Positions 7,193-31,238 of a DNA stretch of 64,000 nucleotides are shown in pieces (the first letter of the stretch is position 1; each line of letters starts with the position of its first letter). This stretch comes from an uncultured Verrucomicrobiae bacterium (lineage in GTDB: Bacteria; Verrucomicrobiota; Verrucomicrobiia; Limisphaerales; CAVQOW01), in assembly GCA_963714605.1 (NCBI GenBank), contig CAVQOW010000010.1, positions 55,293-119,292 on the forward strand, written 5' to 3'. The notes under the pieces were generated by a model. That model made no database searches. It worked only from the letters and a program-made list of their open reading frames with translations, and was not told where the DNA came from. A program made the position numbers and the translations under genes.

Positions 7193-7220
7193 TCCGAAAT
7201 CCGAAACCTGAAATCCGAAA
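7193..7220. repeat. (TCCGAAA)x4 heptamer tandem array inside hypF, encoding ...VRNPKPEIRN...
   Basis: direct reading: tccgaaa tccgaaa cctgaaa tccgaaa. Confidence 0.8.
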
Positions 7221-7518
7221 TTCCTGTGCTCCCGGCAACCCATGCCTCGGTGTCATGCTCCCTTACACACCGCTTCATCACCTGCTTCTGGCTGAGCTCG
7301 GATTTCCCATTGTCGCCACCAGCGGCAATCTGAGCGATGAGCCGATTTGCATTGACGAGCGTGAAGCGATCGAACGTCTCGGCGGCTTCGCCGACGTTTT
7401 TCTCGTTCACAACCGTCCCATCGTTCGCCATGTGGACGATTCCGTCGTGCGCGTGATGCTCGGTCGCGAACTGGTTTTGCGTCGGGCGAGAGGGTTTGCC
7501 CCGTTGCCAATTACTTTT

Positions 7519-7553
7519 AAATCGAAAATCGAAAATCGAAAATCGAAAATCGT
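7519..7553. repeat. (AAATCGA)x4 + AAATCGT heptamer tandem array inside hypF, encoding ...FKSKIENRKSKI...
   Basis: direct reading of five 7-nt units. Confidence 0.85.
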
Positions 7554-8312
7554 CTTGGCCGTCGGCGCGCATTTGAAAAACGCCGTTGCCCTCTCGGTCG
7601 GCGACCAGGTTTTCATCAGCCAGCACATCGGCGATTTGGAGACAGAACAGGCATTTGCCGCCTTCCGCCGGGTCATTGCGGATTTTGAAAAACTCTACGG
7701 GGCGAAATCGCGAAATAATCGCTGCTGATTTGCACCCGGATTACCTTTCGACGAAATTGCGAGAGTGGCGCGCGAAGGCAAGAGTACGCATCTTGAGGCC
7801 GGAAACCTGCGCTACATAAGTGTCCAGCACCATATTGCACACGTTCTGTCATGCATGGCGGAAAATGAGTTATCGCCGCCAGCGCTCGGTGTGTCGTGGG
7901 ACGGCACGGGCTACGGCTTGGACGGAACGGTTTGGGGCGGAGAATTTTTTCTTGTCACCGACAAAAGCGTCGAGCGCGTTGCACATTTCCGCCCGTTTCG
8001 GTTGCCTGGCGGAGACAAGGCCGTCAAAGAACCGCGCCGCGCGGCGGCAGGATTGCTTTACGAGATGTTTGGTGCGGCAGTGTTTGAACGAAAAGAGTTA
8101 GCGCCCGTCGCGGCATTTTCGCCCGGTGAACTATCCACACTGAAAGCAATGCTCGCGCGTAATCTTAACTCGCCTTTTTGTTGCAGCGTCGGCCGGTTGT
8201 TTGACGCCGTCGCTTCGCTGACAAATTTCCGCCAGCAAATCCGCTTCGAAGGGCAGGCCGCAATGGAACTGGAGTTCGCGCTGGAGGGAATCGAAACTGA
8301 CGAAGCTTATGA

Positions 8313-8389
8313 ATTGCGGATTGCGGATTGCGGATTGCCGGAATCGTCGCTCGACGGAAATCCGAAATCCGAAATCCGAAATCCGCAAT
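8313..8389. repeat. 77-nt palindromic element: (ATTGCGG)x3 ATTGCCG, 17-nt spacer, (AAATCCG)x4, inside hypF
   Basis: inverted heptamer arrays able to fold as a hairpin; the hypF frame switches from 1 to 0 exactly here (77 mod 3 = 2). Confidence 0.8.
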
Positions 8390-8706
8390 TATCTTGGACT
8401 GGTCGCCGATGATGGAAGCGATGCTGGCCGACATGCAAAGCGGCATTTCCGTCGGCAAATTTCCGCCAAGTTTCACAACGCTTTGGTCGGAAGGCATCAT
8501 CGCCGTCGCCAAACGTGCCGGCCAAACGCGGTGGTGCTTTCAGGCGGCTGTTTTCAGAATCGTTATCTTACTGAGCGCGCGGTGCGACGACTGCAGGTGG
8601 AGGGATTCCGTCCCTATTGGCATCAGCGCGTGCCGCCCAACGACGGCGGCATTGCCTTGGGCCAAGTCATTGCCGCGCGGCGCGAGAAGGGGTAGAATGA
8701 CAAGAC

Positions 8707-8965
8707 ATGTGTCTGGCCATTCCAGGAAAAATTGAAAGCATCAGCGGCGATGAGCCGCTGTCGCGCACGGGCAAGATCAATTTCGGCGGCATCCTCAAGG
8801 AAGCCTGTCTCGCCTACGTGCCCGAAGCGAAGGTCGGCGATTATGTCATCGTCCACGTCGGCTTCGCCCTCAGCCGGGTGGACGAGGACGAGGCGCACAA
8901 GGTTTTCGAGTACTTGAAGGAGATGGAGGAACTCGGCGAGCTGGGAGATGGAATCCGGCCCATGA
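8707..8965 (+). CDS. hypC: hydrogenase maturation factor HypC; runs through into hypD in this sequence, probably a 1-nt indel near its 3' end
   Basis: MCLAIPGKI... N-terminus typical of HypC/HupF; an out-of-frame TGA at 8963-8965 forms a canonical ATGA overlap with the hypD start. Confidence 0.6.
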
Positions 8966-10065
8966 AATATCTCGACGAATATCGCGACGGGGAGCTAGCG
9001 CAACAATTCGCGCGGGAGATCCATCGCGTCACGACCCGGCCGTGGAACATCATGGAAGTCTGCGGCGGCCAGACGCACGCCATCGTCAAGTTCGGCATCG
9101 ATGAATTGCTGCCCAAAGCCATCACGCTGATTCACGGTCCGGGCTGCCCGGTCTGCGTGACGCCGTTGGAAATGATCGACAAGGCGCTGGAGATCGCGGC
9201 GCGGCCCGGCGTGATTTTTGCCTCGTTCGGCGACATGCTGCGCGTGCCCGGCAGCACGACGGATCTGCTTTCGGTCAAAGCCAAGGGCGGCGACGTGCGA
9301 ATCGTTTATTCGCCGCTGGATGCGGTGAAGATGGCGGAACAAAATCCGGCCAAGGAGGTGGTTTTCTTCGGTGTCGGTTTTGAAACCACCGCGCCGGCAA
9401 CCGCGATGGCGGTTTATCAGGCTGCGCAGAAAGGCCTGAAGAATTTTTCGATGCTCATTTCGCACGTGCTCGTGCCGCCGGCGATCGAAGCGCTGATGTC
9501 GTCGCCGAACTGCAAGGTGCAGGGATTTCTTGCCGCCGGGCACGTCTGTGCCGTGATGGGCTACGAGGAATACCCGCCCATTGCGGCGAAATATCACGTA
9601 CCGATTGTCGTCACCGGTTTCGAGCCACTCGATATTTTGCAGGGCGTGCTGATGGTGGTGCAGCAACTGGAATCCGGCCGGGCCGAGGTTGAAAATCAAT
9701 ACACCCGCGCCGTGCGCCGCGAAGGCAACCAGCCGGCGCAGGAGCTGATCCGCAAGGTTTTCAAGGTCGTGCCCCGCAAGTGGCGCGGCGTCGGCGAAAT
9801 TCCGCAGAGCGGCCTCGGTTTGAACGACGCCTATGCCGCGTTCGACGCCGAAAAAAAATTCGGCCTGGCCGACCATCACGTTGACGAACCGGCCGAATGC
9901 CTCAGCGGCCTGGTTTTGCAGGGACAAATCAAACCGCACGAATGCCCGGCCTTCGGCACGCGCTGCACGCCGGAGCATCCACTCGGCGCGACGATGGTGT
10001 CATCCGAAGGCGCGTGTGCGGCGTATTACCGCTACCGGAGGCAACCGGCTGAAGCTGGAAAATGA
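8962..10065 (+). CDS. hypD: hydrogenase maturation factor HypD
   Basis: MKYLDEYRD... start; GPGCPVCV and other conserved HypD Cys motifs. Confidence 0.85.
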
Positions 10066-10079
10066 ATTATTTATGCGGG

Positions 10080-10181
10080 AACATCGAACATTGAACATCG
10101 AACATCGAACATCCAATTTCATTTGGATGGTCGGGGACAAGACATTCGATGTTGGGCGTTGGGCGTTGGATGTTGGATGTT
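10080..10181. repeat. about 100-nt palindromic element between hypD and hypE: (AACATCG)x4 AACATCC, 32-nt spacer, CGATGTT (GGGCGTT)x2 (GGATGTT)x2
   Basis: inverted heptamer arrays read directly; located in the 130-nt hypD-hypE spacer. Confidence 0.8.
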
Positions 10182-10197
10182 TTCATTTTTGAATCTT

Positions 10198-11241
10198 ATG
10201 GAATTCAATTCCACCTGCCCCATTCCCATCTCGCAATACCCGCACGTTCTGATGGCGCACGGCGGCGGCGGCAAGCTGATGCACCAGCTCATCGGCAAAA
10301 TGTTTCTGTCGGCATTCAACAACCCGCTGCTGGAAACGCAGCATGATTCGGCTGTGGTCGAATGGACCGGCAAAAAACTGGCTTTCACGACCGATTCCTA
10401 CGTTGTGCGCCCGATTTTTTTTCCTGGCGGCGACATCGGTTCGATGGCCGTCCACGGCACGGTGAACGACCTCGCCATGAGCGGCGCGCGGCCGCTTTAC
10501 CTCAGCAGCGCGTTCATTCTGGAGGAGGGTCTGCCGATGGAAACGCTCTGGCGGGTTGTCTGCTCGATGCGCGACGCGGCCCAGCGTTGCGGTGTGCAAA
10601 TCATCACCGGCGACACCAAGGTCGTGGACAAAGGCAAGGGCGACGGCCTGTTCATCAACACCGCCGGCATCGGTGTGATTGAACACCCGCTCACCATCGG
10701 GCCAAAAAGCGTCCAGCCTGGCGATGCCGTGCTCGTAAGCGGCGATTTGGGCCGGCACGGCATGGCGATCATGGCCGTGCGGGAAGGGCTGCAATTCGAA
10801 AGCGCCATCGAAAGTGACTCCGCGCCGGTGGCGGATTTGATTTTGGAACTGCTCCGCGCCGGAATCGAAATCCACTGTCTGCGCGACCTGACCCGCGGCG
10901 GCCTGGCCAGCGCGCTGAACGAAATTGCTGAAGACGCCGGCGTCCGCATCGCCGTCGATGAAAAATTGATTCCTGTGCGCGAAGACGTTCACGCCGCGTG
11001 CGAGATGCTCGGCCTTGATCCGCTGCACGTGGCCTGCGAAGGCCGGTTTGTGATGTTTGTCGCGGTGAAAGATGCGGAACGCGCCCTGCAAATCATGCGT
11101 GGGCACGAGTTGGGCGTGGCTGCGGCGTTGATTGGCAAAGTCGGCGAACATTCCTCGCCGCTCGTCACGTTGAAAAGTGCGATAGGTGCGAGCCGGATTC
11201 TTGACATGCCAAGCGGCGAGCAGTTGCCGAGGATTTGTTAA
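10198..11241 (+). CDS. hypE: hydrogenase maturation factor HypE
   Basis: AIR-synthase-like fold motifs and C-terminal ...PRIC typical of HypE. Confidence 0.85.
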
Positions 11242-11276
11242 GGACGGGCAGCGCGCACAATGAGGGGTAATTGACA

Positions 11277-11320
11277 ACAAACCGCTCTTCCCGCATTGGC
11301 GGGACAGAGCGGCTTTGTTG
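11277..11320. terminator. long near-perfect hairpin between convergent hypE and ppdK; candidate bidirectional terminator
   Basis: caaaccgctcttcccgcattggcgggacagagcggctttgttg; second small hairpin gtcgaggctgcggctcgac follows. Confidence 0.5.
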
Positions 11321-11373
11321 TAGTGTCGAGGCTGCGGCTCGACACGCATTCGACCGCAGGCCGAATGCTAAAC

Positions 11374-14159
11374 TTACTTTTTCTTCGCGTTCTTGGCGGC
11401 CTCTTCTTCGAGGGCTGCTTGTGCCGCTGCCAAGCGGGCAACGGGGACGCGGAACGGTGAGCAACTCACGTAGGTTAACCCGAGACGATGGCAGAACTTC
11501 ACGGACTCGGGATCGCCACCGTGTTCGCCACAGATGCCCAGCTTGATGCCAGGACGGGTCTTGCTCCCTTTCTCTACCGCAATCTTCATCAACTGACCCA
11601 CGCCCGTCTGGTCAATCGTGGCAAACGGATTCTTCTTGATGATCTCGTGTTCCTGATACGGTCCAAGGAACGAGCCGGAATCGTCGCGGCTCATTCCCAG
11701 GCAGGTTTGCGTAAGATCGTTCGTGCCGAAGCTGAAGAACTCGGCGGTCTGCGCGATTTCGTCAGCGGTCAACGCCCCGCGCGGAACTTCGATCATCGTG
11801 CCGACGAGGTAATTCAGCTTTACGCCTTTTTCCTTCATCACTTCCTGCGCGACGCGATGGACGACTTCGACCTGGAGATCAAGTTCCTTCTTGAACCCGA
11901 CAAGCGGGATCATGACTTCGGGCTTCACCTTGATGCCGGCCTTCTGCACTTCGGCGGCAGCTTCAAAGACGGCGCGGGCCTGCATCTCGGAAATTTCGCT
12001 GTGAACGATGCCGAGTCGGCAGCCGCGGAAACCGAGCATCGGATTGAATTCGTGCAGTTCCTTCACGCGCTGTTTAATCTTTTCAACGGGCACACCCATC
12101 TTCTTCGCGAGGTCCTGCTGCGCTGCGTCCTCGTGTGGGAGGAACTCATGCAACGGCGGATCGAGGAAACGGATGGTGGCCGGATAACCTTTCAGCGCCT
12201 TGAAGATACCGACGAAATCTTCTTTCTGGTAGGGCAGAATCAGCGCCAGTGCCTTCTTCCGATCCGCCAGGTTGTCAGCAAGAATCATTTCGCGCATGGC
12301 ATCAATGCGGTTGCCCTCGAAGAACATGTGCTCGGTTCGGGTGAGGCCGATACCGGTCGCGCCGAACGCGACGGCGTTCTCGGTCTGCTCCGGCGTGTCG
12401 GCGTTGGTGCGCACTTGGAGCTTGGTGACTTTGGAGCACCAGTTCATCAAGGTGGCGTACATGCCGTAAGTCTCGCTCTGCTTCGGATCAAGCGTCTTGT
12501 CAACCAACACCTGGACGATCTCCGACGGTGCGGTCGGAAGCTGTCCGCCATAAACATTGCCGACGGTACCGTTGATGGACAGAAAATCTCCTTCCTTGAA
12601 AGTCTGGCCACCGGCAGTGACGGTCTTGGCGTTATAGTCAATCTGCAATGCGGCAGCGCCGCACACGCAAACCTTGCCCATCTGACGGGCGACGAGCGCC
12701 GCGTGTGAACTGACGCCACCTTTGGCGGTCAGGATGCCTTCCGAGGCGATCATGCCGCGCAGGTCTTCGGGCGACGTCTCATTTCGGACGAGCAAAACCT
12801 TTTCGCCCTTGGCCGCAGCAGCGTCCGCACGGTCAGCATTAAGATAGAGCTTGCCGCAGGCGGCGCCGGACCGGCCGGGAGGCCCGTGGCGATAACTTTC
12901 GCGGCCTTCTCAGCTTTCTGGTCAAAAATCGGAGCCAACAATTGGTCGAGCTGGTCGGCTGGGTTGCGGCGAATGGCCGTCTTCCAGTCAATGAGCTTTT
13001 CCTTGTTCATGTCCATGGAGAACTTGAGCGCGGCCATAGCCGTGCGCTTGCCGTTGCGGGTCTGGAGCATGAACACCTTGCCGTCCTGGATCGTAAATTC
13101 GAAATCCTGCACGTCCTTGAAGTGCGTCTCCAAAGTCTTGCGGATGTTGTCCAGTTCTTTGTAGGCGGCGGGCATTTGCTTCGCCAATTGCGCGACGGGT
13201 TCGGGTGTGCGGACGCCGGCGACGACGTCTTCGCCCTGGGCGTTGATGAGAAATTCGCCGTAGAACTCTTTCACGCCGTTGGCCGGGTTGCGCGTGAACG
13301 CGACACCGGAACCGGAGGTGTCACCGGTGTTGCCATAGACCATGGCCTGCACGTTGACAGCCGTTCCCCATTCAGAGGGAATGCCATACTTGCGGCGATA
13401 CACGATGGCACGATCGTTCATCCACGAACCGAACACGGCGCCGGCAGCGCCCCAAAGCTGCTTCCACGGGTCCTGCGGAAATTCCTTGCCGGTGCGCTCC
13501 TTGATCAGCGCCTTGAAACGCGTGACGAGCTCCTGCTGGTCGGCGGCGGTGAGCTTGGAGTCTTCGATGTCCGTATGATACTTCTCATGCTTGAAACTGT
13601 GGATGACAACTTCAAACGGCTCGTGATCCTCGTCTTTAGTCTTCTGGACACCCATGACGACGTCGCCATACATCTGCACGAAACGACGGTAACAATCCCA
13701 CGCGAAACGCTCGTTCTTCGTCGCGGCGACAAGCGCGAGCACAGTTTCGTCGTTGAGACCAAGATTGAGAATCGTGTCCATCATACCGGGCATTGAGTCG
13801 CGCGCGCCGGAGCGGACGGAGACGAGCAACGGCATCTCGCTCTTGTCGCCAAACTTCGTGCCCATGATGTTCTCGATGAACGCCACACCGGCTTTGACCT
13901 GCGGGTCGAGTATCTTGGGATAGGTTTTCTTGTTCTGGTAATAATAGGTGCAGACCTCGGTGGTCATGGTGAAGCCCGGAGGCACGGGCAGCCCGATGCG
14001 GCTCATTTCGGCGAGATTGGCGCCCTTGCCGCCGAGCAGCGGCTTCATACCGCCGTTGCCGTCGGCCTTTTTGTTTCCGAAAACGTAAACGTATTTGTTC
14101 GATTTCAATGCTTTAGCCATAAATGTTTGTTTTCCAAATAATCTTGGTGATGCTCTCAA
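11374..14159 (-). pseudogene. ppdK: pyruvate, phosphate dikinase; one frame break near 12800-12850
   Basis: N-terminal ATP-grasp part (12750..14159) and central phospho-His plus PEP-utilising C-terminal part (11374..12795) on the same strand; break in a G/C-rich run (…LPAGPGAASGKLY… restored by one base). Confidence 0.85.
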
Positions 14160-19081: not shown

Positions 19082-22000
19082 TTGCGCCGGTTAATTTGCA
19101 TTCAACCGATGCCGGACAGAATCGAACATCTGCAACACCTGTTGCGCGAACGCATCGTCATCCTTGACGGCGCGATGGGCACGATGATCCAGCAACGCAA
19201 GCTGGATGAGGCGGCGTTTCGCGGCGCGCGGTTCGCGGACTGGCGCGGCAAAGACCTAAAAGGGTGCAATGACCTCCTCAATCTCACCCAGCCGCAAATC
19301 ATCGAGGACATCCATCGCCAATATCTCGAAGCCGGCGCGGATATCATCGAGACCAACACGTTCAACTCGCAGTCCATCTCGCTTGCGGATTACGGGCTGG
19401 AATCGCTCGCCTACGAGCTGTCGAAAGCCGGCGCGGAATGCGCGCGTCGCGCTGCCGACAAAGTCATGGCCGCGCAACCGATGCGCGTCTGTTTCGTCGC
19501 CGGCGCGATTGGACCTACAACAAAAACCTCTTCCATCTCGACCGATGTCAACAATCCCGCCGCTCGCGGGACGACTTACGACAAACTGGTCACTGTGTAC
19601 GGCGAACAGATCCGCGGTCTGCTTGACGGCGGCGCGGACTTGCTGTTCGTCGAAACCATTTTCGACACACTGAATGCGAAGGCGGCGTTCTTTGCGATCC
19701 TAAAGTTTTCGAGGATCGCGGCGTCGAGCCGTTCTCTTTTTCCGCCGGAGTTGCTCAATCTCAAATCTCAAATCGCATATCGCAAATTCCAGTGCTCGCA
19801 TCTGTCACATTCATCCAAGCCGGAAGCAATCGCGGTGTTACCGGGCAAACCGTCGAAGCGTTTTGGAATTCCATCTCACACGTGCCGCTATTGAGCGTCG
19901 GCATGAATTGCGCACTTGGGCCGAAAGAATTGCGTCCGCTGATCGAGGAGCTTTCCGGCATTGCGCCGATTTACGTCAGCGCATATCCAAACGCCGGACT
20001 GCCGAATCCGCTCTTGCCGACGGGTTTTCCCGAAACACCGGAAACGCTCGCGCCCCAGTTGCGCGAGTGGGCGCAGAACGGCTGGTTGAACATCGTCGGT
20101 GGTTGTTGCGGCACAACGCCGTCGCATATCAAAGCAATCGCCGGCGCCGTAAAAAATTTGTCGCCGCGCAAAGTTCCGGCGGTTGAGCCTTACCTGCGAT
20201 TGAGCGGGCTGGATGCACTAACCGTGCGTCCGGATTCCAATTTCCTCAACATCGGCGAGCGCACGAACGTCGCCGGATCACCGAAGTTCGCCCAGCTCAT
20301 CAAGGCCGGCGATTACGAAGCCGCGCTGACGGTTGCACGGCAGCAGGTCGAGAACGGCGCGCAGGTCATTGATGTCTGCATGGACGAAGGGATGATAGAC
20401 GGTGTCGCGGCGATGACGCGCTTTCTCAACCTCATCGCCTCCGAACCGGACATCTGCAAAGTGCCGGTCATGGTGGATTCCTCGAAATGGGAAGTCATTG
20501 AGGCCGGATTGAAATGTCTTCAAGGCAAAGGCATCGTCAACTCGATAAGCCTGAAGGAAGGCGAGGAAAAGTTTTTGCATTATGCGAAACTCGTCCGTCG
20601 CTACGGTGCTGCGGTCGTCGTGATGGCGTTTGACGAACGCGGCCAGGCCGATTCGTTCCAGCGTCGCACGGAAGTCTGCAAACGCGCTTACGATTTGCTC
20701 GTCGGTAAAGTTGGTATCCCGCCGCAGGACATCATTTTTGATCCGAACGTGCTGACCGTCGGCACGGGCATGGAGGAACACGCGAATTACGCCGTGGATT
20801 TCATCCGCGCGACAAAGTGGATCAAGGAGAATCTACCTCATGCGAAAGTCAGCGGCGGCATCAGTAATGTTTCTTTCTCATTTCGCGGCAACAACGCCGT
20901 GCGCGAGGCGATGCACAGCGCGTTTCTTTTTCACGCCATCAAGGCCGGACTCGACATGGGCATCGTCAACGCCGGGATGCTGGCGGTCTATGAGGAAGTT
21001 CCGAAAGAGTTTTTGGAATTGGTCGAAGACGTTTTGCTGAATCGCAAACCCGACGCCACCGAGCGGCTCATCAAATTTGCCGAATCGGTGAAGCAAAAAG
21101 GTAAAACCAAAGTCGTCGAGGACGAATGGCGCAAGGGCACGGTTGAGGAACGGCTCAGCCACGCGCTCGTAAAAGGAATCGTGGATTTCATTGATGCCGA
21201 TGTGGAAGAGGCGCGTCAGAAATACGCGAAGCCGCTACTCGTCATCGAAGGCCCGCTCATGGCGGGCATGAATGTCGTCGGCGATTTGTTCGGAGCTGGC
21301 AAAATGTTTCTACCGCAGGTCGTCAAAAGCGCCCGCGTGATGAAGAAAGCCGTCGCTTATCTCCAGCCGTTCATGGAAGCAGAAAAGAAAGCCGCAGGCG
21401 GCACGCACAAAAATGCCGGCAAAATCCTTATGGCTACTGTCAAAGGCGACGTGCATGACATCGGCAAGAACATTGTCGGCGTTGTGCTGGCGTGCAACAA
21501 CTACGAGGTGATTGACCTCGGCGTGATGGTGCCGTGCGAAAAAATCCTCGCCGCCGCCCGCGAACACAAGGTCAACATCATCGGCCTCAGCGGACTCATC
21601 ACGCCGTCGCTCGACGAAATGGCGCATGTCGCCCACGAGATGGAACGCCAAGGTCTGAAGCTGCCGTTGCTCATCGGCGGCGCGACGACGAGCAAAGCGC
21701 ACACTGCGGTGAAGATTGCACCCGGTTACAATCAACCGGTGGTCCATGTCATTGATGCGAGCCGAGCCGTGCCGGTGGTTAGCAATTTGATTAGCACCGA
21801 GCAAAAACCGAAGTTCGCCGCGCGAATCCGCGACGAATACGACCGCGTTCGCGCCCAACACGGTGGTCAAACGGCAAAATTGGTTTCGATTGAGGAAGCT
21901 CGCGCCAACGCGCCGAAACTGAAGTTCGACGATTTGCCAAAGCCGGAGTTCACCGGCGCGCGAAAACTTTGTTCCGATATAGGCACAATTTCGCTGGCCG

Positions 22001-22945
22001 ACCTTGTTCCTTTCATTGACTGGTCGCCGTTCTTCCACACTTGGGAACTGCGCGGTGTTTATCCGAAAATTCTCCAGCACGAAAAGCACGGCGAAGAAGC
22101 GCGCAAACTTTTCGCCGACGCCCAGAAGCTGCTCGACAAGATTGTGACCGGGAAACTCCTCAGCGCCTGTGGCGTGTACGGCTTCTTCCCTGCCAATCGC
22201 GTCGGTGACGACGTGGAACTTTACGCGGATGAATTGCGTTCGATAGTTTTGACGACGTTTCACTTCCTCCGGCAGCAAATCGAGAAGGGCGACGGTTCGC
22301 CGAACTGGTGTCTGGCCGATTTTATTGCGCCCCAAAATGCGCGGCATCACGTGCCACGTGTCATGTGTCACGATTATATTGGCGCGTTCGCCGTCACGAG
22401 CGGGCATGGGCTCGCCGAACTTGTCAAAAAGTTCAAGGCCGACCACGACGATTACAACGCCATCATGGCCGAAGCGCTGGCCGACCGGTTGGCGGAGGCA
22501 TTCGCCGAATTCCTGCACAAGCGCGTCCGGGAAGAATGGGGCTTCGGCAAATCCGAAAAGCTGGCGACTGAAGACCTCATTGAAGAAAAGTATCGCGGCA
22601 TCCGCCCGGCGGCGGGTTACCCAGCGTGCCCCGACCACACCGAGAAAGGAACTTTGTGGAAGTTGCTCGACGTGGAGAAAAACACAGGCATCAAGCTTAC
22701 GGAAAGTTTTGCGATGTGGCCTGGCAGTTCATGTGAGCGGACTTTATTTCGCACACCCGAATTCAAAATACTTCGCCGTTGGCAAGCTGGGTCAAGACCA
22801 ACTGCTCGATTACCACCTCCGCAAAGCAATGAACTTGCAGGAAGTCGAGAAATGGCTTGGGCCATACTTGAATTACGATCCGACCAAAGTCGACAGCCCC
22901 GGAAACGCCACGTCCAAGTGCTCGTGTGGCGTGGCTCATCGTTGA
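19082..22945 (+). pseudogene. metH: cobalamin-dependent methionine synthase MetH; frame breaks near 19700 and 22735; carries a 60-nt in-frame heptamer-repeat insertion
   Basis: Hcy S-methyltransferase, pterin-binding, B12-binding (DxHxxG ... GGATTSKAH) and AdoMet-activation domains all recognisable; C-terminus continues in ORF 22325..22945. Confidence 0.9.
19757..19790. repeat. heptamer array AATCTCA AATCTCA AATCGCA TATCGCA AATTCC inside metH
   Basis: direct reading; part of a 60-nt segment encoding [20 protein letters not shown] between the conserved GVE and PVLASV segments. Confidence 0.8.
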
Positions 22946-23057
22946 CGGAGTAGTCTTCTATATTCCAGACGGAATTCATTACAGGCTGTAGGCGATAAAG
23001 CGCTCGACAGGGAATGAGTTTTTGCTTAAAAGAGACATCGTCGCAGAAGGGAGAACT

Positions 23058-25090: not shown

Positions 25091-25258
25091 CTTATTTGAT
25101 TTCGCGATGCAACGTGTGGCGGCGCAGGGACGGATTAAACTTCATGATTTCCAGCTTTTCCGTCTTGGTCTTTTTGTTGCGGGTTGTCGTGTAGCGTGAC
25201 GGAGACTTGCCCTGCTTGCGCGCCTCCGTGCATTCGATGGTGATGATTTCGCGAGGCA
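25091..25258 (-). CDS. rpmG: 50S ribosomal protein L33 (55 aa; below the ORF-track length cutoff)
   Basis: manual translation: [55 protein letters not shown]. Confidence 0.85.
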
Positions 25259-25262
25259 TAAA

Positions 25263-25841
25263 TTATTCTTTCTCCTTGGCCTTTTCTTCCGGTTCCTCTT
25301 CCTCCTCGACCTCGGCCACGCCCGTGCTGTCCACGGTGCCAAGTTGTCCCAAGCGGCGCGAGCGCAAAGCGCCTTCGCGCTCCAGTTGCGCCTGGGCATT
25401 CACGGTGAATCGCGTCCACGGGATCGCCTCCAAACGCGCCTTGGGAATCGTTTTGCCGGTCAATTCACAAACGCCGTAGGTGTTCCGCTCAATGCGTTTG
25501 AGCGCTTCCTCAATTTCATAAATTGCGTCCTGATCGGAAGAAAGAAGGCTCAGCGCGAAATCGCGGTCGAAATTATCCGTGCCTGAGTCGGCCATGTGAA
25601 GGCTGTAGCCGGGAATCTCCTGCGCCGATTCCTTGGCCAGACCGGTTACTTGGCATTGCAACTGCTCGCGCAGTTCCAACAAACGAAAGTAATACTTTTG
25701 CCACTCCGGCTTGATTCGCTTTGGTTTGCTGTCGTCGCGGTTCTTGGCCACGGGCCGGCCAAGAATTGCCGCGGCCGTCGTCAGGCCTTGCTGCGTATTC
25801 CGAAATGATGTTTTTTTTGCCACAGTTTTCTTCGTAATCAC
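25263..25841 (-). CDS. DksA/TraR-family regulator (single Cys, no canonical C4 finger) with acidic C-terminal tail
   Basis: ...NTYGVCELTGKTIPKARLEAIPWTRF... resembles the DksA C-terminal region; immediately upstream of rpmG-rpsR. Confidence 0.5.
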   Translation of the reverse strand: MITKKTVAKKTSFRNTQQGLTTAAAILGRPVAKNRDDSKPKRIKPEWQKYYFRLLELREQLQCQVTGLAKESAQEIPGYSLHMADSGTDNFDRDFALSLLSSDQDAIYEIEEALKRIERNTYGVCELTGKTIPKARLEAIPWTRFTVNAQAQLEREGALRSRRLGQLGTVDSTGVAEVEEEEEPEEKAKEKE

Positions 25842-26013
25842 TACTCAAAAATCCGACTTTTTAACTTCAAATTCCGCCCACTCAACGTCGCGCATGTGCA
25901 CGGTTCCCAAAAGGGTGCGGGAATGTAGCAAACGAAACTGGATAATCCACTAAAATCTTTGAGAATTTTCGCTTTTGCCACGCAACAGCCCATAAAACCG
26001 CACCCGGCAGCGT

Positions 26014-26851
26014 TTATCCCTTCTCAATGCAGGCGTAGGCGTTGTGGTTGTGGATGCTTTCCTGGTTTTCCGCCTCGACCTTGTACCAAACCACATCCGG
26101 ATGAGCATTGAGCTTCAGCGCGATGTTGCGGACCAAATCCTCGACGAACACTGGATTGTCATACGCGCGCTCGGTGACGGCCTTTTCGTCCTCCCGCTTG
26201 AGCAAGGCGAACAACTCGGAACTGGCCGAACTCTCGATGATCTCAATCAAATCCTCGATCCAGATGGGCTTGCGAAAACGCACTTGCACCGGTCACTTCG
26301 CCGCGCTGGTTGTGCGCGCCGCGGGCGCTGATGGCTTTCGAGCACGGACAAAGCGTCGTTACGTTCGCCTTGACCGTCAGCAGAAATGCGATTTCCTTCT
26401 CGCACGCTGCCGCGTCGAAGCGCGCCGTGTAATCCATCACACTTTCTTTGCCCGACACTGGCGATCTCTTCACCATGAAATACGGGAACTCCATTTCCAG
26501 ATGCGACGTGGCCGCATGAAACTTCTCCTGCATTGCGTAAAGGATGTCCGGTATGTTTTCCACGTGCATGACGCTGCCATGCGCGTTGAGCACCTCGATG
26601 AACCGGCTCATGTGCGTCCCTTTGAACTCCTTGGGCAAATCCACGAACATCCCGATGGTCGCCACCGTGTTCTGCACGCTGTGCGCCTTGTCTCGGACCT
26701 GAATTGGAAACCGCAATCCGCGCACGCCAACCTTGTCAATGCGCAGTTCGCGATGGTCGCGCTCGCTTTGCTTGTCGTGGAGTTTGGGACGGCGTTTGCC
26801 GCCAGGATCACGAACAGCCGCTGACGCTTTGCTGTGGGTCAGTTTTGCCAT
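26014..26851 (-). pseudogene. folE2: GTP cyclohydrolase FolE2/MptA; frame break near 26285
   Basis: CPCSKAIS...GAHNQR motif in the 26243..26851 ORF; conserved C-terminus in the 26014..26289 ORF. Confidence 0.75.
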
Positions 26852-26981
26852 GGCTAGAAGTTAGCAAGAGGGTTCTGTTTTGCAAAAAATATCGCCTCGC
26901 CCTGTCGTCCTGCTTTTCCAGGACAATCCACGTGGTCAGTTGGATTTTGACTTGTGGACGCATGATGTTTATTACGCATCC

Positions 26982-27920
26982 ATGAATTTGAAATCGCTGT
27001 CGGTCGGTCTTGTCATCCGTTTCACGACCGCGCTTTTTTGTTCAAGCCTGGCCGCAGCCGAAACTTTCCGCGTCGCCACATACAACGTCGAAAATTATCT
27101 CGACCAAACCACCGAAACGCGACACGAGGTCAAATCCCCAGAAGCCAAAGCCAAAATCCGCCAAACCCTCCACGCCGCAAATCCCGATGTGATCGCCTTC
27201 GAGGAAATGGGCCAGCCCAGCGCGCTCATGGAACTGCGCAGTTCGCTCAAAACCGAGGGACTTGACTATCCTTATTGGGAATACGTCACTGGGTATGATA
27301 CGAACATCCATGTCGCCGTGCTCAGCAAATTCCCCATCATTGCGCGCCGACCCCATACGAACGACAATTTTCTTCTCAGCGGACGCCGCTTCCAGGTCAG
27401 CCGCGGATTTGCCGAGGTGGACATCAAGGTCAATCCGGCATATCAATTCACGCTCATCGCAGCCCATCTGAAATCGCGCCGCCCGATTCCGGAAGCCGAC
27501 GAAGACGAGTTGCGGCGGGAAGAAGCCAAGCTCCTGCGCGAAATCGTCAATGCGCGCCTTGAAGCAAATCCCAACGCCAACATCGTCGTGCTCGGCGATT
27601 TCAACGACGTGAAGGACTCGCGTTCGACGAAAGAAATCATCGGGAAAGGCAAATTCAAACTCGTGGACACACGCCCCGCCGAGCGCAATGGCGACAACCA
27701 ACCCAACCCGACAAACCCGAAATGGGAACCGCGCAACGTCACATGGACTTACTACTACGGCGTCGAAGACACCTACAGCCGGATTGATTACATCCTGCTC
27801 AGCCCCGGCATGGCGCGCGAGTGGGAGCCGAACGAAACCTACATTCCCACAATTTCAAACTGGGGCATCGGGTCGGACCACCGGCCCATCGTGGCGACAT
27901 TCACTGCCACCGACAAATAG
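26982..27920 (+). CDS. secreted endonuclease/exonuclease/phosphatase (EEP) family protein
   Basis: signal peptide; TYNVEN, VLGDFND and GSDHRPI motifs. Confidence 0.65.
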   Translation: MNLKSLSVGLVIRFTTALFCSSLAAAETFRVATYNVENYLDQTTETRHEVKSPEAKAKIRQTLHAANPDVIAFEEMGQPSALMELRSSLKTEGLDYPYWEYVTGYDTNIHVAVLSKFPIIARRPHTNDNFLLSGRRFQVSRGFAEVDIKVNPAYQFTLIAAHLKSRRPIPEADEDELRREEAKLLREIVNARLEANPNANIVVLGDFNDVKDSRSTKEIIGKGKFKLVDTRPAERNGDNQPNPTNPKWEPRNVTWTYYYGVEDTYSRIDYILLSPGMAREWEPNETYIPTISNWGIGSDHRPIVATFTATDK

Positions 27921-27950
27921 CCGCCACGCAACCGAAGCATCGTAGCACGA

Positions 27951-28871
27951 TTACTTTTTGCCTCTCGTAAAACCCGGCCGTGGACGGATCGGTGGCGGAA
28001 TGGGAATGCGCTTGGGCGGCAACGTTGGTGTGGACGGAGACGCCGTCGGCGGCGTGACCGAAGACTGTGGCCAGTTTTTCTGGGCAAGTTCCACGACTTG
28101 ACTGGCAACATTGGCGGCAGGTGATTCCGAAACCTTTGTCCCGATTGTTTCAATTCCTTTTGCCAGCCAATCCTCGGCCTTCGTCACCGTCTCGCCGATT
28201 TTCGTTTCGGGAAATTTCATCTCGCCGATCTGAAAATCGGTAAGCGACTTGAGTTTGTCCACGGTTTCACCCGCGGTTCTGACGACTTCAGTCCAACGGT
28301 CGCCCACTGTCGCCAACGTATCGTACCCGTTCACAATCCAATCGAGTTTGCCCGTCTGGATATCCACGACCAAACCGTGCACCGGCACTTTCGGACCGAT
28401 GAGCGGACTGTGCCGGACAATGTCGCACGCCTTGATGACGTTCTGCCGCTCGCTGCCGAACATGCCGAAGTAATCATTGATGTTCTCCGGCAACACGCGC
28501 CGTTCCACGCCCAGCGCCTTCAGCTTGTCGAGCAACTGCGTCGTCGTCGTCTTGCACACCTGACAATCCGTGTGGCCGATGATGGCGATTTCCTTGCCGC
28601 CCTTGACCGCGCACGCCAGCGCCAGCGACCGCATCGTGCTGCTGAGCGGCGCGGTGATGATGTTGCCCGCATTGCGCAACCAGATGAAACTCTCTTCCGG
28701 AACTCCGAGCACGCCCGGCATGAGCCGATTCAGTCGCGGGTCAACGCACGTCAGCGCCACGACCGGCAATTCGCTCTCGAACTCCGCCACATGGACTCCG
28801 GCGTTTTGATCGCCCGCAACCGCGCGACTGTTCGCTTCGATAATGGCTTCAAAAAGGCGCATGGCTGGCAT
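27951..28871 (-). CDS. beta-class carbonic anhydrase with Pro-rich C-terminal extension
   Basis: CVDPR and GHTDCQ zinc-ligand motifs. Confidence 0.8.
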   Translation of the reverse strand: MPAMRLFEAIIEANSRAVAGDQNAGVHVAEFESELPVVALTCVDPRLNRLMPGVLGVPEESFIWLRNAGNIITAPLSSTMRSLALACAVKGGKEIAIIGHTDCQVCKTTTTQLLDKLKALGVERRVLPENINDYFGMFGSERQNVIKACDIVRHSPLIGPKVPVHGLVVDIQTGKLDWIVNGYDTLATVGDRWTEVVRTAGETVDKLKSLTDFQIGEMKFPETKIGETVTKAEDWLAKGIETIGTKVSESPAANVASQVVELAQKNWPQSSVTPPTASPSTPTLPPKRIPIPPPIRPRPGFTRGKK

Positions 28872-28915
28872 GGAATTATCCCTCTTGCCTCAATTGGTCA
28901 AACAATGAATCAAAA
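28798..28915. repeat. native copy of about 118-nt repeat (first 25 codons of the carbonic anhydrase gene plus about 45 nt upstream)
   Basis: matches 30082..30199 at about 92% identity and 29523..29578 partially. Confidence 0.8.
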
Positions 28916-28990
28916 GGCCGCCTCTGCCGGTCAGTTTCGAGGTCGCCCTTTTTGTTTGCAGTTGCGGCCCAGGCAAGTTCAACTCTGGTC

Positions 28991-29272
28991 ATGCTGACTT
29001 TTGAATGGAACGCGAACAAGGCCGGATCAATTCTGGCCAAGCACGGTGTCAGCTTTGAAGAAGCGGCGACGGTTTTTGGCGATCCCGCTTCAATAACAAT
29101 TCCAGACCCGGCGCACTCGCAAATGGAAACGCGATTCGTCATCTTGGGCCGTTCGCATCAAGGAAGATTGTTGGTTGTCATCCACACCGAACGCGGCGAT
29201 AATATCCGCATCATCAGCGCGCGGCACGCGAGCCGGCGCGAAAGAAAAAGCTATGAAGAAACCATCGGCTAA
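28991..29272 (+). CDS. brnT: BrnT-like toxin (DUF497)
   Basis: MLTFEWNANKAGSILAKHGVSFEEAATVF... typical of the BrnT family. Confidence 0.65.
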   Translation: MLTFEWNANKAGSILAKHGVSFEEAATVFGDPASITIPDPAHSQMETRFVILGRSHQGRLLVVIHTERGDNIRIISARHASRRERKSYEETIG

Positions 29273-29474
29273 ACCGGCGGTTAAAGATATGCGGGCGGAA
29301 TATGATTTTTCGCGCGGCGTGCGCGGCAAACATTTCCGACGCTACCATCGCGGCGCGAACGTGGTGGTCTTGGGGCCGGACGTGGCCAAGGTTTTTTCCA
29401 ATGCCGAAACCGTGAACGATTCTCTCCGCGCGCTGGCGGGCATCATCCGCCGACAAAAAGCGGTAGCGAGATAA
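29253..29474 (+). CDS. brnA: BrnA-like antitoxin
   Basis: small ORF overlapping the brnT 3' end; ...EYDFSRGVRGKHF... C-terminus. Confidence 0.5.
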   Translation: MKKPSAKPAVKDMRAEYDFSRGVRGKHFRRYHRGANVVVLGPDVAKVFSNAETVNDSLRALAGIIRRQKAVAR

Positions 29475-29522
29475 TTTCCTTCTCCGCGCTGGGGAGAAGG
29501 TGGCCGGAGGCGGGATGAGGTG

Positions 29523-29578
29523 GATCGCCGGCAACCGCGCGACTGTTCGCTTCAATAATGGCTTCAAAAAGGCGCATG
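29523..29578. repeat. partial (56-nt) copy of the carbonic-anhydrase 5' repeat
   Basis: encodes ...MRLFEAIIEANSRAVAGD... out of context. Confidence 0.8.
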
Positions 29579-29584
29579 CCGGCT

Positions 29585-29803
29585 TTACTTCATTTCCCGT
29601 AGGAAATCCTCAATCTCTACTCCGCCATCACGCAATGCACCTTTCAGCGTGAAGCGGTCAACTTCGTCGTGAAAAGGAAACACGATCAACCTTCCATCGG
29701 GATGCTTCATCTTCACGTGACTGCCTTTGCGATGAATCTCCTGAAAACCCAGGCGCTGCAAAGCGGTCAACACCTGTCTGCCGGACAGGAGCGGCAATTT
29801 CAT
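29585..29803 (-). CDS. hicA: HicA mRNA-interferase toxin
   Basis: 72 aa; ...GFQEIHRKGSHVKMKHPDGRLIVFPFH... Confidence 0.75.
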   Translation of the reverse strand: MKLPLLSGRQVLTALQRLGFQEIHRKGSHVKMKHPDGRLIVFPFHDEVDRFTLKGALRDGGVEIEDFLREMK

Positions 29804-29997
29804 ACCGTCAATTCGACCACTTCGCGTTTGCCTGCCAGTTCTTCGGGCGATGGTTCAAGATAGAGATCAATCGCTTCCCGGATATTTATCAAAGCCTCCT
29901 CGCGTGTCTTGCCCTGTGACCAGCAACTCTTCAGCGACGGACAATGCGCCACGAAGTAGCCGTCCTCACCGGGTTCAATTATCACTTTCAAGTTCAT
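29800..29997 (-). CDS. hicB: HicB antitoxin (UPF0150)
   Basis: MNLKVIIEPGEDGYFVAHCPSLKSCWSQGKTREEALINIREAI...; ATGA overlap with hicA. Confidence 0.7.
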   Translation of the reverse strand: MNLKVIIEPGEDGYFVAHCPSLKSCWSQGKTREEALINIREAIDLYLEPSPEELAGKREVVELTV

Positions 29998-30081
29998 GCC
30001 ATTTGCCTTTCGTTCACGGGTGCAATGTAAACCGGCCAAAATCGAAAAGCCAGTTCATCGGCAAACTCCGTCGGATGCAAA

Positions 30082-30199
30082 CCGGCGTTTTGATCGCCGG
30101 CAACCGCGCGACTGTTCGCTTCAATGATGGCTTCAAAGAGGCGCATGGCTGACATGGAATTATCCCTCTTGCCTCAATTGGTCAAACACTGAATCAAAA
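30082..30199. repeat. third copy of the carbonic-anhydrase 5' repeat, pseudo-start MSAMRLFEAIIEANSRAVAGDQNAG...
   Basis: about 92% identical to 28798..28915. Confidence 0.8.
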
Positions 30200-30311
30200 T
30201 GCCGCTTGCGCGCAGTTCAACTCCGCAAATGCGAAGTTCGTGACCGACTACAAGAATGCCCGCATTATTGTGGATTCAACCGGCCGTAGCGCGAGAACTT
30301 ACTTTGCTCTT

Positions 30312-30683
30312 TTAATTGTGAGTTGAATTGATCGAATTTGTGCAACTGTTTGAATTCGTAGCTGCCAGATTCAAGTGGGTAATGCTTATTATTGCTTCAC
30401 GGCGAATTTCGTAAACAGTTGGTTTGTTCGTACTGCCCCTCCATTCTGCCGGCCCACCGGCTTCATTGGTCGAAGCGAGAAGAACAATACTACTATTCGC
30501 ATCAAGCAAAATCATACGGTTTGCTAAAAGTCCATTTACCACGTTTGTTGGTATTGAATTTAAAAATCTAGCGTCAAAATCTAATCGAACGGGATGAGAC
30601 ATTGTATAATCCCCACCACCTTTCGCCAGCCCGCCGCAGACTCCAGCGACCTGTCGGTCATCGCGTGAACGGCTGAGGTTCAT
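30312..30683 (-). CDS. hypothetical protein with PspC-like N-terminal motif, no TM segment
   Basis: RSRDDRQVAGVCGGLA resembles the PspC domain core; remainder unassignable. Confidence 0.25.
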   Translation of the reverse strand: MNLSRSRDDRQVAGVCGGLAKGGGDYTMSHPVRLDFDARFLNSIPTNVVNGLLANRMILLDANSSIVLLASTNEAGGPAEWRGSTNKPTVYEIRREAIISITHLNLAATNSNSCTNSINSTHN

Positions 30684-30688
30684 GTTGA

Positions 30689-30742
30689 ATTTACGATTTA
30701 CGATTTGCGATTTGCAATTGCGATTGCGATTTTCGATTCACG
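30689..30742. repeat. array of about 8 ATTTACG/ATTTGCG/ATTGCG units, abutting the stop of the four-helix-bundle gene
   Basis: direct reading. Confidence 0.8.
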
Positions 30743-31097
30743 CGCGGTTGGAAGTGCGGGCGGTTTTTGCCGATGAGACGACGATGGCCAGGATTTCATC
30801 GGATTCTTTCATCAAATCTCGAAGCAGCGATTCCTTGATATAATTGTTTTCCACCAGCAGTTCCATCCAGAACAATGATTCATCGCATTCTTCTTCAACA
30901 ATGCGAAGCTTGTTGATGAAGTCCGCGCCGGATTTCGCCCGACAGACAGCGCGGTAATTCGCACCCACAGAAGTCCCGCTACGAAGAAGCTGTTTTCCGA
31001 GTGTTTGCGCAACCCAATCACCCGGCAACGCAGAGCAGAGCTTCACGACACGATTGGCGTAAGTCTTCGTCCGATCTTTCATTTCCTCGCGCGTCAT
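30738..31097 (-). CDS. four-helix-bundle protein (23S rRNA intervening-sequence protein / Avd-like family)
   Basis: ...LGKQLLRSGTSVGANYRAVCRAKSGADFINKLRIVEEECDESLFWMELL... matches the family core. Confidence 0.8.
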   Translation of the reverse strand: MTREEMKDRTKTYANRVVKLCSALPGDWVAQTLGKQLLRSGTSVGANYRAVCRAKSGADFINKLRIVEEECDESLFWMELLVENNYIKESLLRDLMKESDEILAIVVSSAKTARTSNRA

Positions 31098-31100
31098 AGG

Positions 31101-31238
31101 ATTTACGATTTACGCGCGCCTTTTGATCTCGTCATCTGTGACATGAGCGTTGCGCATCTGTTTTCGTTTGAGTTCACAACAACCCAGCAGGCATGGATTT
31201 TCGACAGACTCGTAAATCGTATATCGTAAATCGTCAAT
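31101..31238. repeat. inverted heptamer arrays (ATTTACG x2 ... CGTAAAT CGTATAT CGTAAAT CGTCAAT) flanking a 96-nt core; between the four-helix-bundle gene start and the flotillin stop
   Basis: direct reading. Confidence 0.8.

Follow-up and report, generated by a model that had tools for sequence, protein, structure and literature searches.

Heptanucleotide arrays of a verrucomicrobial genome as conserved arms of four-helix-bundle gene cassettes and possible parts of an intervening-sequence-like hairpin system

The window analyzed here, a stretch of 64,000 nucleotides from contig CAVQOW010000010.1 of an uncultured Verrucomicrobiae bacterium, carries ten short tandem arrays of 7-nt units between positions 7193 and 31238. 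We found that arrays of this kind form the conserved, complementary arms of a cassette whose open reading frame (ORF) encodes a four-helix-bundle (4HB) protein under purifying selection, and that cassettes of like design, built from other units, occur with other 4HB subfamilies and in Cyanobacteria and Chloroflexota. With moderate confidence, we interpret the arrays as building blocks of a hairpin system resembling the intervening sequences (IVSs) of 23S rRNA, the full form of which consists of mirrored arms of about four units that bracket the 4HB gene. The arrays of the window fall into three classes: the arms of one 4HB cassette (starting at 30689, 31100 and 31210), hairpins without an ORF, and solo arrays that lie in frame within conserved genes. 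An initial annotation of this DNA had treated the 4HB gene as a mere neighbor of the repeats; instead, the gene is flanked by the arrays as conserved arms in hundreds of loci, in other phyla too.

Results

Conserved heptamer arms bracket a four-helix-bundle gene

The 4HB gene of the window has thousands of homologues, the best 120 of which are 81-96% identical. We surveyed 80 metagenome loci holding a gene of this type (retrieved loci carry labels such as L050). These loci contain 67 period-7 arrays, nearly all of them flanking the 4HB gene, versus at most two arrays for any other period. Read on the gene strand, the stop codon of a host gene is followed after 0-10 nt by about four ATTTACG units, a variable leader of mostly 28-49 nt, the 4HB ORF, about four CGTAAAT units and, finally, the start codon of a second host gene. 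Typical arms read ATTTACG ATTTACG ATATACG ATTTACG upstream and CGTAAAT CGTATAT CGTAAAT CGTAAAT downstream. The TAA stop codon of the 4HB gene lies inside the first CGTAAAT unit, the ATG of the next host gene abuts the last unit, and the cassette is co-directional with both host genes. Variant units are mirrored between the arms, so that a stem of about 28 bp can form. Among loci with both flanks available, nearly all have complementary arms (14-34 bp with 0-4 mismatches). The host junctions are cdsA/dxr (about 48 loci), a flotillin gene (about 14, the site of the window copy), fabZ/lpxA (about 6), an sdh-like gene pair (about 4) and x/gnd (about 3). The neighbors in the 80 loci are housekeeping genes, and no setting of the kind associated with an Avd-type reverse transcriptase was found among them.

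The 4HB protein is under strong purifying selection, with a ratio of nonsynonymous to synonymous substitution rates (dN/dS) of 0.08 at a dS of about 1.8. The upstream arm agrees with a 28-nt consensus at 22 or more positions in 66 of 70 loci (median 26), even though synonymous sites are saturated and the leader adjoining this arm is only about 33% identical; the arm sequence itself is therefore maintained, far beyond neutral expectation. Protein distances are nearly the same between copies at different junctions (0.259) and copies at the same junction (0.231), and the nearest relative of the window copy sits at cdsA/dxr, a pattern suggestive of conversion or exchange among cassettes. In L091, L146 and L160 the cassette is partially duplicated in tandem, with the first array followed by another 3' fragment of the 4HB ORF (..MKEADEILAIVVSSAKTAR..); L146 holds a CGTAAAT array of nine units. 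Such duplications would fit unequal recombination by way of the arrays.

Counterparts with other units in further subfamilies and phyla

A gene 68% identical to that of the window (L159) is flanked by the arms ATTTCGG ATTGGCG ATTGCGG ATTGCGG and CCGCAAT CCGCAAT CGCCAAT CCGAAAT, which mirror each other perfectly over 28 bp. Other 4HB subfamilies carry AATCCGC/AAATCCG arms, and mirrored arms were confirmed in the DNA of L161 and L164. Two 4HB cassettes lie in a single MoxR-DUF58-BatA operon in L161 (1-2890), and after the first of them comes a long and degenerate array, about 100 nt in length, with GAAAACY/GAGAACT units. A search with the L159 protein retrieved a subfamily of 127-129 aa whose C-terminal tails are translated arrays (NPQSAIANPK, NPQSAIRNPQ, NPKSEIRNPK and NPKSAIPNPKS). 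Many annotated 'four helix bundle proteins' likewise end in the translation of the downstream array, and some gene calls start within the upstream one (IADCGL; LAISDCGL.., MVIADCGL..).

Genes for 'four helix bundle proteins' with 35-60% identity were also detected by tblastn on plasmids of Planktothrix, Gloeocapsa, Nostoc, Chlorohelix and Bernardetia. Inverted heptamer arrays bracket the 4HB gene in five of the six loci fetched, and the Planktothrix unit is the ATTTACG/AAATCGT of the window. As a control on whole replicons, we scanned four annotated stretches (200 kb), three of them cyanobacterial and one from Chlorohelix (Chloroflexota). Twelve of the 20 period-7 arrays lie within 200 nt of six annotated 4HB genes, regions that account for 2.4% of the scanned DNA (binomial p 3e-15); no array was detected in the Chlorohelix stretch at the control cut-off. 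One ORF-less pair in the control stretches is built from the unit of a neighboring cassette. On the Nostoc flagelliforme plasmid pNFSY08 (L174, 23124-23311), an ORF-less inverted pair TAATTCG / CGAATTA, its arms 130 nt apart, is located at a distance of 1.5 kb from a 4HB cassette that has the TAATTCG unit on both sides. Plasmid pNPUN01 of Nostoc punctiforme PCC 73102 holds cassettes at 159.7-160.2 kb and 162.6-163.1 kb. The plasmids of Planktothrix, Gloeocapsa and Chlorohelix (L165-L168, L172, L173) have the 4HB cassette between co-directional genes of defence-type operons, at the junctions DISARM drmD/4HB/pglX and DUF1156/4HB/Swt1-family HEPN. A solo ATTTACG/ATTTATG array exactly fills the DUF1998/drmA spacer in Planktothrix.

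The cassette of the window

The window copy lies on the minus strand, as do its host genes, a flotillin gene (FloT-like, 31239..32762) upstream and a gene for a small PspC-domain protein (30312..30683) downstream. The flotillin junction is also occupied by a cassette in L088, L089, L093 and L104. The 4HB gene (30738..31097, 119 aa) encodes an S23p/Avd-like protein that matches the '23S rRNA-intervening sequence protein' family PF05635 (E 1.8e-16) and TIGR02436 (85 bits, cut-off 24); its nearest structure is PDB 2RLD (E 1.8e-20). The upstream (5') arm (31210..31238, minus strand) begins 1 nt past the flotillin stop codon and reads ATTGACG ATTTACG ATATACG ATTTACG on the gene strand. The downstream (3') arm (30689..30738, minus strand) has its first base at the 4HB stop codon, reads CGAAAAT CGCAAT CGCAATTG CAAAT CGCAAAT CGTAAAT CGTAAAT on the gene strand and ends 5 nt short of the ATG of the PspC-domain gene. 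An additional short array (31100..31114, minus strand), which reads (CGTAAAT)2 on the gene strand, is located directly 5' of the 4HB start codon, is able to pair with the 5' arm in an alternative hairpin, and has a match in L094, L108, L111 and L117. The inverted pair previously described at 31101..31238 can thus pair through the arrays at 31100 and 31210, but it is only part of a cassette of three arrays that spans 30689-31238. The distal arms are paired in both the minimum free energy and the centroid folds.

This copy is not located in a 23S rRNA, as its flanks are the flotillin and PspC-domain genes, and neither Rfam families nor rRNA were found in the window. No reverse transcriptase adjoins the 4HB gene, whose neighbors are the same two genes. 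The repeat-flanked gene is a PF05635 member rather than a transposase, and PADLOC returned no defence-system match for its product.

Hairpins without an open reading frame

Two pairs of arrays in the window form hairpins that enclose no ORF. The first (8311..8389, plus strand) lies in a variable loop of hypF, here named site D, and has a left arm (ATTGCGG)n at 8311-8338 and a right arm (GAAATCC)n at 8355-8389 (dG -43.8 kcal/mol, z -5.7). Its units are the arm units of the L159/L161-type 4HB cassettes. The insert is placed between the conserved EAYEL and IILDW motifs, where L050 has an identical left arm with the frame kept. The second hairpin (10079..10181, plus strand) fills the spacer between the hypD stop codon (10063-10065) and the hypE ATG (10199), with arms (GAACATC)5 at 10079-10113 and (GATGTTG-like)5 at 10148-10181 (dG -45.8 kcal/mol, z -4.8). 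Orthologous hypD/hypE spacers contain a degenerate AACATC hairpin (L050), AAATCCG/CGGATTT (L002) or ATTTACG/CGTAAAT (L005), all of which fold (z -3.1 to -5.8), so three different units are found at this site and arm complementarity is kept with each. Six other relatives have a spacer of only 3-31 nt. No 4HB gene was detected beside the arrays of 80 hypF loci by tblastn, a narrow hidden Markov model or Pfam searches of 10 small ORFs, and many arrays are therefore without an adjacent 4HB gene.

The initial annotation had described the arrays as mostly inverted pairs of 80-140 nt. This holds for the two ORF-less hairpins, for which the structure prediction it proposed gave the strong folds reported above, but not for the arrays at 7193, 7519 and 19757, which are solo and unstructured in RNA folding. 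The places it had named were all recovered, namely the hypD/hypE spacer, both flanks of the PF05635 gene, and the interior of hypF and metH.

In-frame arrays in HypF and MetH

Three solo arrays are translated as part of conserved proteins. At HypF site A (7193..7221, plus strand), 4.1 copies of an AAATCCG-type unit stand right behind the conserved PIVLL motif, share the frame of the hypF ORF 6271-7728 and encode ..VRNPKPEIRNS..; no RNA structure is predicted for them (z +1.35). At HypF site B (7519..7552, plus strand), a perfect array of 4.9 AAATCGA copies encodes KSKIENRKSKI in the linker that joins the YrdC-like domain to the Kae1-like domain. The third array (19757..19787, plus strand; 4.4 copies of AAATCTC/AAATCGC) occupies a variable loop of the homocysteine-binding domain of MetH.

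An alignment of 80 HypF proteins in which array-coded residues were marked revealed three variable loops, A after PIVLL, B after RRARGYAPLPI and D after EGQAAMELEF...AY. At site B, verrucomicrobial relatives have an insert of equal length made from different units (AAATCGA in the window, AAATCCG in L005, L008 and L030, AACTCTC in L001, ACGCTCC in L007 and AAATCCA in L012), and the linker is about 8 aa shorter in most other phyla. Site A also contains array-coded peptides in the same loop of relatives, and peptides from AAATCCG/AATCCGC arrays (SEIRNPK, SAIRNPQ) are found there in Bacteroidota, Blastocatellia, Calditrichota and others. The interval FEERG-VPILASVTF of MetH has no insert in most taxa, and close relatives carry heptamer-coded peptides of other units at this site (NSKFKIQNSKF, SQISDFKFQI and NSQLSTFNSQL). 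The coding arrays are thus in frame and limited to permissive loops, with a position common to relatives and a variable unit. All appear to run in the AAATC orientation on the sense strand, in which they would be hydrophilic when translated and free of stop codons in every frame. Array density in hypF is five times that of the 10-kb flanks (30 arrays in 196 kb versus 31 in 1057 kb, p 1e-9), a comparison open to selection bias as one of the search patterns was derived from an array.

A different insert of about 40 aa (..PLPQERENxxP..CSLSPG), which is not heptamer-coded, is present at HypF site A in L002, L004, L017 and L033. The metagenome-assembled genomes concerned are labelled Verrucomicrobiae, Dongiaceae and Akkermansia, a distribution that may reflect mis-binning or transfer of hypF.

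Period 7 is the sole enriched period

Tandem Repeats Finder detected ten period-7 arrays at 7193-31238, with 2.1-7.4 copies each: TCCGAAA (7193-7221, x4.1), AAATCGA (7519-7552, x4.9, perfect), ATTGCGG (8313-8338, x3.7), GAAATCC (8357-8389, x4.7), GAACATC (10079-10113, x5.0), GATGTTG (10148-10181, x4.9), AATCGCA (19757-19787, x4.4), ATTTGCG (30689-30738, x7.4), GATTTAC (31100-31114, x2.1) and TCGTAAA (31210-31238, x4.1). These calls match the coordinates and units first reported for the 7.2-31.2 kb region. A periodicity scan of the window (score of at least 10) yielded eight arrays of period 7, one of period 11 and none of periods 4-6, 8-10 or 12, versus a mean of 0.07 period-7 arrays in 30 first-order Markov simulations of the window. 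Period 7 is the sole enriched period. All ten arrays are confined to 24 kb, the remaining 40 kb of the window containing none at an equal threshold.

The convergence of the units on AAATC plus two bases, as originally proposed, applies to seven of the ten arrays, which have AAATC on one of their strands (a random unit would do so by chance in about 1-2% of cases), but not to ATTGCGG, which has CAATC, or to the AACATC/GATGTT pair. Relatives contain 61 period-7 arrays in their hypF loci, in addition to the 67 in the 4HB loci. Weak period-7 arrays outside the AAATC family occur in the window at 22347-22372 (TCACGTG, in metH), 45155-45180 (CCTTCAA) and 56124-56141 (GAAGGCA), and may have arisen by chance or be decayed. 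A resemblance to telomere-like units (CCCTAAT in L063) was considered and dropped as coincidence.

Source lineage and sequence quality

The best relatives of the hypF product, among contigs from one genome per species, are uncultured Verrucomicrobiota (Limisphaerales, 'subdivision 3') with 74-76% identity, and the window comes from a Limisphaerales/Pedosphaera-like genome of the Verrucomicrobiota with many indel errors. The hypF gene (6271..8695, plus strand) runs through three frames with at least six frame changes (indels at about 7705, 7790, 8317-8387, 8455, 8487 and 8532), and metH (19082..22953, plus strand) has one frameshift near 19700, located in 'ctaaagtttt' about 55 nt 5' of the array at 19757. 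The rpoD gene (3016-3705 / 4147-4866) and ppdK (12750-14159 / 11374-12795) are also split, whereas hypF is a single intact frame in all 80 relatives. As the frameshifts lie away from the arrays, rpoD and ppdK are broken as well and relatives keep hypF intact, we read those of hypF and metH as assembly indel errors unrelated to the arrays. The sole frameshift within an array is that of the hypF site-D insert, which is 71 nt long as sequenced (72 nt would be in frame). Several frameshifts in rpoD, ppdK, hypF and metH adjoin short homopolymers. The sequence of the window resembles an error-prone assembly, probably from long reads, in which exact repeat copy numbers may deviate slightly.

Two further observations concern the hydrogenase maturation genes. 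HypC (residues 1-70) and HypD (97-444) are encoded in one ORF at 8707-10065 with no stop codon between them; L003 aligns along the entire fusion, which is either a true hypC-hypD fusion or a further sequence error. Cyanobacterial HypF proteins (Oscillatoria, Coleofasciculus, Leptolyngbya) are 60-65% identical to verrucomicrobial HypF, and many Verrucomicrobia are no closer. This hints at a possible exchange of hydrogenase maturation genes between phyla that also share heptamer units.

Discussion

A candidate intercistronic hairpin system

We propose that the cassette would be transcribed by read-through from the host operon and that its arms would pair in the RNA to form a stem of about 28 bp. 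RNase III may then cut this stem, by analogy with the S23p-bearing IVSs of 23S rRNA, which would set the 4HB mRNA free and either uncouple the flanking cistrons or tune them; effects on the stability and translation of these cistrons would be expected. Because the arms abut the stop and start codons of the host genes, ribosome traffic would interact with stem formation. The ORF-less hairpins would be cargo-free versions of the cassette stems, serving, as RNA stem-loops between cistrons, in processing, stability or translational coupling. The solo arrays of HypF and MetH would belong to the same unit families and survive only where they are harmless, that is, with a stop-free sense strand and in hydrophilic, variable surface loops or linkers. 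Arrays would be retained and remodelled in situ by slippage and inter-array conversion, so that orthologous sites would come to hold arrays of equal length made of different units and paralogous cassettes would stay similar. The unit turnover at fixed sites argues for such in-place slippage and conversion rather than recent transposition.

This interpretation would join two loose ends, the heptamer repeats and the S23p-type proteins. Within Verrucomicrobiota and the sampled cyanobacterial and Chloroflexota loci, the repeats are conserved arms of 4HB cassettes in ordinary operons (cdsA/dxr, fabZ/lpxA, hydrogenase maturation genes), suggesting a general mechanism of intercistronic RNA processing. 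There is also a warning for annotation, as array-coded peptides (..SEIRNPK.., ..SAIRNPQ..) in proteins and gene tails stem from heptamer repeats.

Several observations weigh against the hairpin system as proposed. RNase III processing is proposed only by analogy with the rRNA IVSs. The strict conservation of the arm sequence exceeds what a stem alone requires. Within the ATTTACG subfamily, complementarity is no higher for two arms of one locus than for arms combined across loci (17.4 versus 17.0, p 0.28), and we therefore claim covariation only between unit types and subfamilies, a pattern also compatible with a cruciform role at the DNA level or with protein binding. At the threshold used, about a quarter of the 4HB loci have no detectable arms, many of them on truncated contigs; the Bernardetia locus is weak; and for many arrays in other phyla there is no 4HB gene in the vicinity. 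The putative link of the solo arrays to the cassettes comes from shared unit families.

A broader version would hold that the heptamer excess of prokaryotes, including the short tandemly repeated repetitive (STRR) sequences and related repeats, is largely one system. S23p/Avd-like cassettes would encode a pentameric product that recognizes its own arrays and seeds, homogenizes and spreads them by recombination or a retro-mechanism, yielding ORF-less hairpins, in-frame loop insertions and 23S rRNA IVSs. We regard this extension as improbable, but if true the elements would be of a new kind, selfish or regulatory, in which a protein specifies the repeat.

Alternative explanations

The arrays could instead be an actively mobile palindromic family, comparable to miniature inverted-repeat transposable elements, Rickettsia palindromic elements (RPEs) or REPINs, that inserts into spacers and in frame into genes and is possibly mobilized by the 4HB protein, for which an earlier proposal of the IVS ORF as a mobility factor provides a precedent (PMC4990558). 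The scatter of the same unit families over unrelated sites, the presence or absence of the hypD/hypE hairpin among relatives, the apparently in-frame palindromes of hypF, the tandem partial duplications in L091, L146 and L160, and 4HB copies nearly as similar across junctions (0.259) as within them (0.231) would all fit. Yet we found neither a transposase nor a target-site duplication, and the arrays are the only defined ends; gene conversion by way of the shared arms explains the similarity of paralogues equally well; and the few recurrent junctions across diverged genomes, like the shared protein loops, point to old, vertically kept insertions. A mobile or expanding family in the simple form first suggested is not borne out, as relatives carry arrays at the same loops and spacer and cassettes at few shared junctions, a picture of long residence with unit turnover, plus presence or absence at the hypD/hypE spacer. 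The comparison of orthologous loci places close relatives near the ancient fixed sequence that the initial annotation had set against mobility, in that they share the array sites, but the orthologous arrays are not identical. We judge active mobility unlikely.

The strict arm conservation and the subfamily-specific units leave room for recognition of the arrays by the (pentameric) 4HB protein. At its strongest, this would make the arrays RNA or DNA binding platforms, with one heptamer per subunit, that serve autoregulation or the recruitment of a partner such as a reverse transcriptase, the stem being secondary. It is the arm sequence, not pairing alone, that is conserved, different 4HB subfamilies go with different units, and arrays typically number 4-5 units in a family that includes pentamers (five chains in 2RLD; X. 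campestris S23p, PMC4990558) and a nucleic-acid-handling homologue, the Avd cofactor of the reverse transcriptase of diversity-generating retroelements (PMC10053308). However, the binding itself is putative, the association of unit and protein comes from few subfamilies, no reverse transcriptase adjoins the window 4HB gene, and ORF-less hairpins and in-frame arrays occur far from any 4HB gene. We hold such platforms to be a doubtful account of the arrays.

Plain long simple-sequence repeats, produced by random slippage and merely tolerated, with neither a function nor a tie to the 4HB gene, would account for copy numbers and units that vary among relatives and for in-frame arrays restricted to variable loops, and heptanucleotides are the commonest long repeats in many prokaryotes, with slippage as the proposed origin (PMC4679880, PMC4692102). 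Random slippage should give unrelated units, yet seven of the ten arrays share AAATC, and a few units recur across genomes and phyla. Nor would it produce complementary, mirrored arms that cluster at 4HB genes and are conserved at 26 of 28 positions despite saturated synonymous sites. As the whole story, this explanation is disfavoured, and we would assign it only a small chance.

Phase-variation switches, in which gain or loss of 7-nt units toggles the hypF or metH frame, might be considered given a unit length that is not a multiple of three, the frameshifts of both genes in the window and the strain-dependent heptamer number in Coxiella, but they are very improbable: the frameshifts fall off the arrays (55 nt upstream in metH, at least five other places in hypF), rpoD and ppdK are broken too, hypF is in frame in 80 of 80 relatives, these are housekeeping genes, and most coding arrays are imperfect. 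The wider idea that arrays break hypF and metH, whether as pseudogenes, by phase variation or with bypassing, was rejected on the same grounds, frameshifts located elsewhere and split rpoD and ppdK. That the arrays are assembly or sequencing artefacts can be practically dismissed, since independent assemblies, as well as finished cyanobacterial plasmids, hold arrays at the same sites, although the indel errors of the window leave a possible error of one base or one unit in the exact copy numbers.

Comparison with known systems

S23p proteins were first seen inside the IVSs of 23S rRNA, are relatives of Avd, and belong to the most widespread bacterial proteins of unknown function, with many copies per genome. 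The 23S rRNA IVS of Coxiella comprises an S23p ORF, a 28-bp terminal stem and two to three tandem heptamers (GACAGAT) before the ATG; the heptamer number differs by strain, and RNase III cuts the stem at the first repeat (PMC4990558). The 4HB cassettes resemble this arrangement in that a PF05635/TIGR02436 ORF lies within the loop of a long terminal-inverted-repeat stem, in the length of the stem (28 bp in Coxiella, arms of 28 nt in the cassettes) and in the tandem heptamers of the 5' arm. In contrast to the rRNA IVSs of Leptospira, Coxiella, Xanthomonas and Brucella, the cassettes are located between protein genes of ordinary operons, at several junctions per genome, and each arm is a clean heptamer array adjoining a host stop or start codon. 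The cassette ORF has a dN/dS of 0.08, whereas the Coxiella ORF is decaying, and excision by RNase III, demonstrated for the rRNA IVSs, is proposed for the cassettes by analogy.

Tandem heptamer repeats have been known in cyanobacteria since 1990, and STRR sequences were first defined from (heterocystous) cyanobacteria, where CCCCAGT is one of the units. STRR hairpins of 7-bp units between hupS and hupL of filamentous cyanobacteria have been proposed to act in stability or translational coupling (PMC2670836). The likeness to these hairpins, already remarked on in the initial annotation, is upheld: both are tandem 7-nt units, usually in few copies, that lie in spacers, often form hairpins between co-transcribed genes, and occur in a hydrogenase cluster. 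The arrays described here differ in their lineage (Verrucomicrobiota), in their AAATCNN units and in being also present in frame in conserved proteins and as 4HB arms; the cyanobacterial loci we fetched share the 4HB link, which we did not find stated in the STRR literature. More generally, heptanucleotide repeats are the most abundant class of long simple-sequence repeats in many prokaryotes, for which polymerase slippage has been proposed (Mrazek et al., summarised in PMC4679880, PMC4692102). The TAACTGA family of Beggiatoaceae, Cyanobacteria and Bacteroidetes and the GGGNATC family of Xanthomonas and Nostoc show a puzzling sharing across phyla and a preference for about four units (PMC4679880, PMC4692102). 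The excess of period 7, the number of about four units, the positions at start and stop codons and the units common to distant phyla are alike here, whereas the earlier studies dealt with direct arrays and with roles in translation or as G-quadruplexes, and reported neither inverted pairing nor a linked gene.

RPEs, as Ogata et al. reportedly described in 2000, are short palindromic elements found in spacers and, in frame, in conserved genes, where they occupy surface-exposed places at which function is preserved. Some of our arrays appear to share this setting, as initially proposed, as short palindromes in spacers and in frame in conserved genes; the hypF hairpin at 8311-8389, an insert of 71 nt as sequenced in a window with indel errors, has a similar counterpart in frame in L050. 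RPEs are different in that their arms are not tandem heptamers, they contain no ORF and they belong to Rickettsia, while the sites described here are common to relatives rather than strain-specific. We know of no sequence relationship between RPEs and the arrays of the window. The repetitive extragenic palindromes (REPs) and REPINs associated with RAYT genes also form hairpin doublets dispersed in spacers, those of convergent or co-directional genes, and characteristically flank one gene, although that gene encodes an IS200/IS605-type transposase and not a four-helix bundle, and the arms are single palindromic REPs and not tandem 7-mers.

The initial annotation knew of no such family for this lineage, and in the searchable literature we found none described for Verrucomicrobiota. 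Nor did we find a paper that ties PF05635 genes outside rRNA to heptamer arrays, or STRR sequences to these genes, in a search that missed most subscription journals. Against the background of these systems, the heptamer repeats themselves are a known kind in a new lineage, and the new part is their link with S23p-type cassettes in ordinary operons across phyla.

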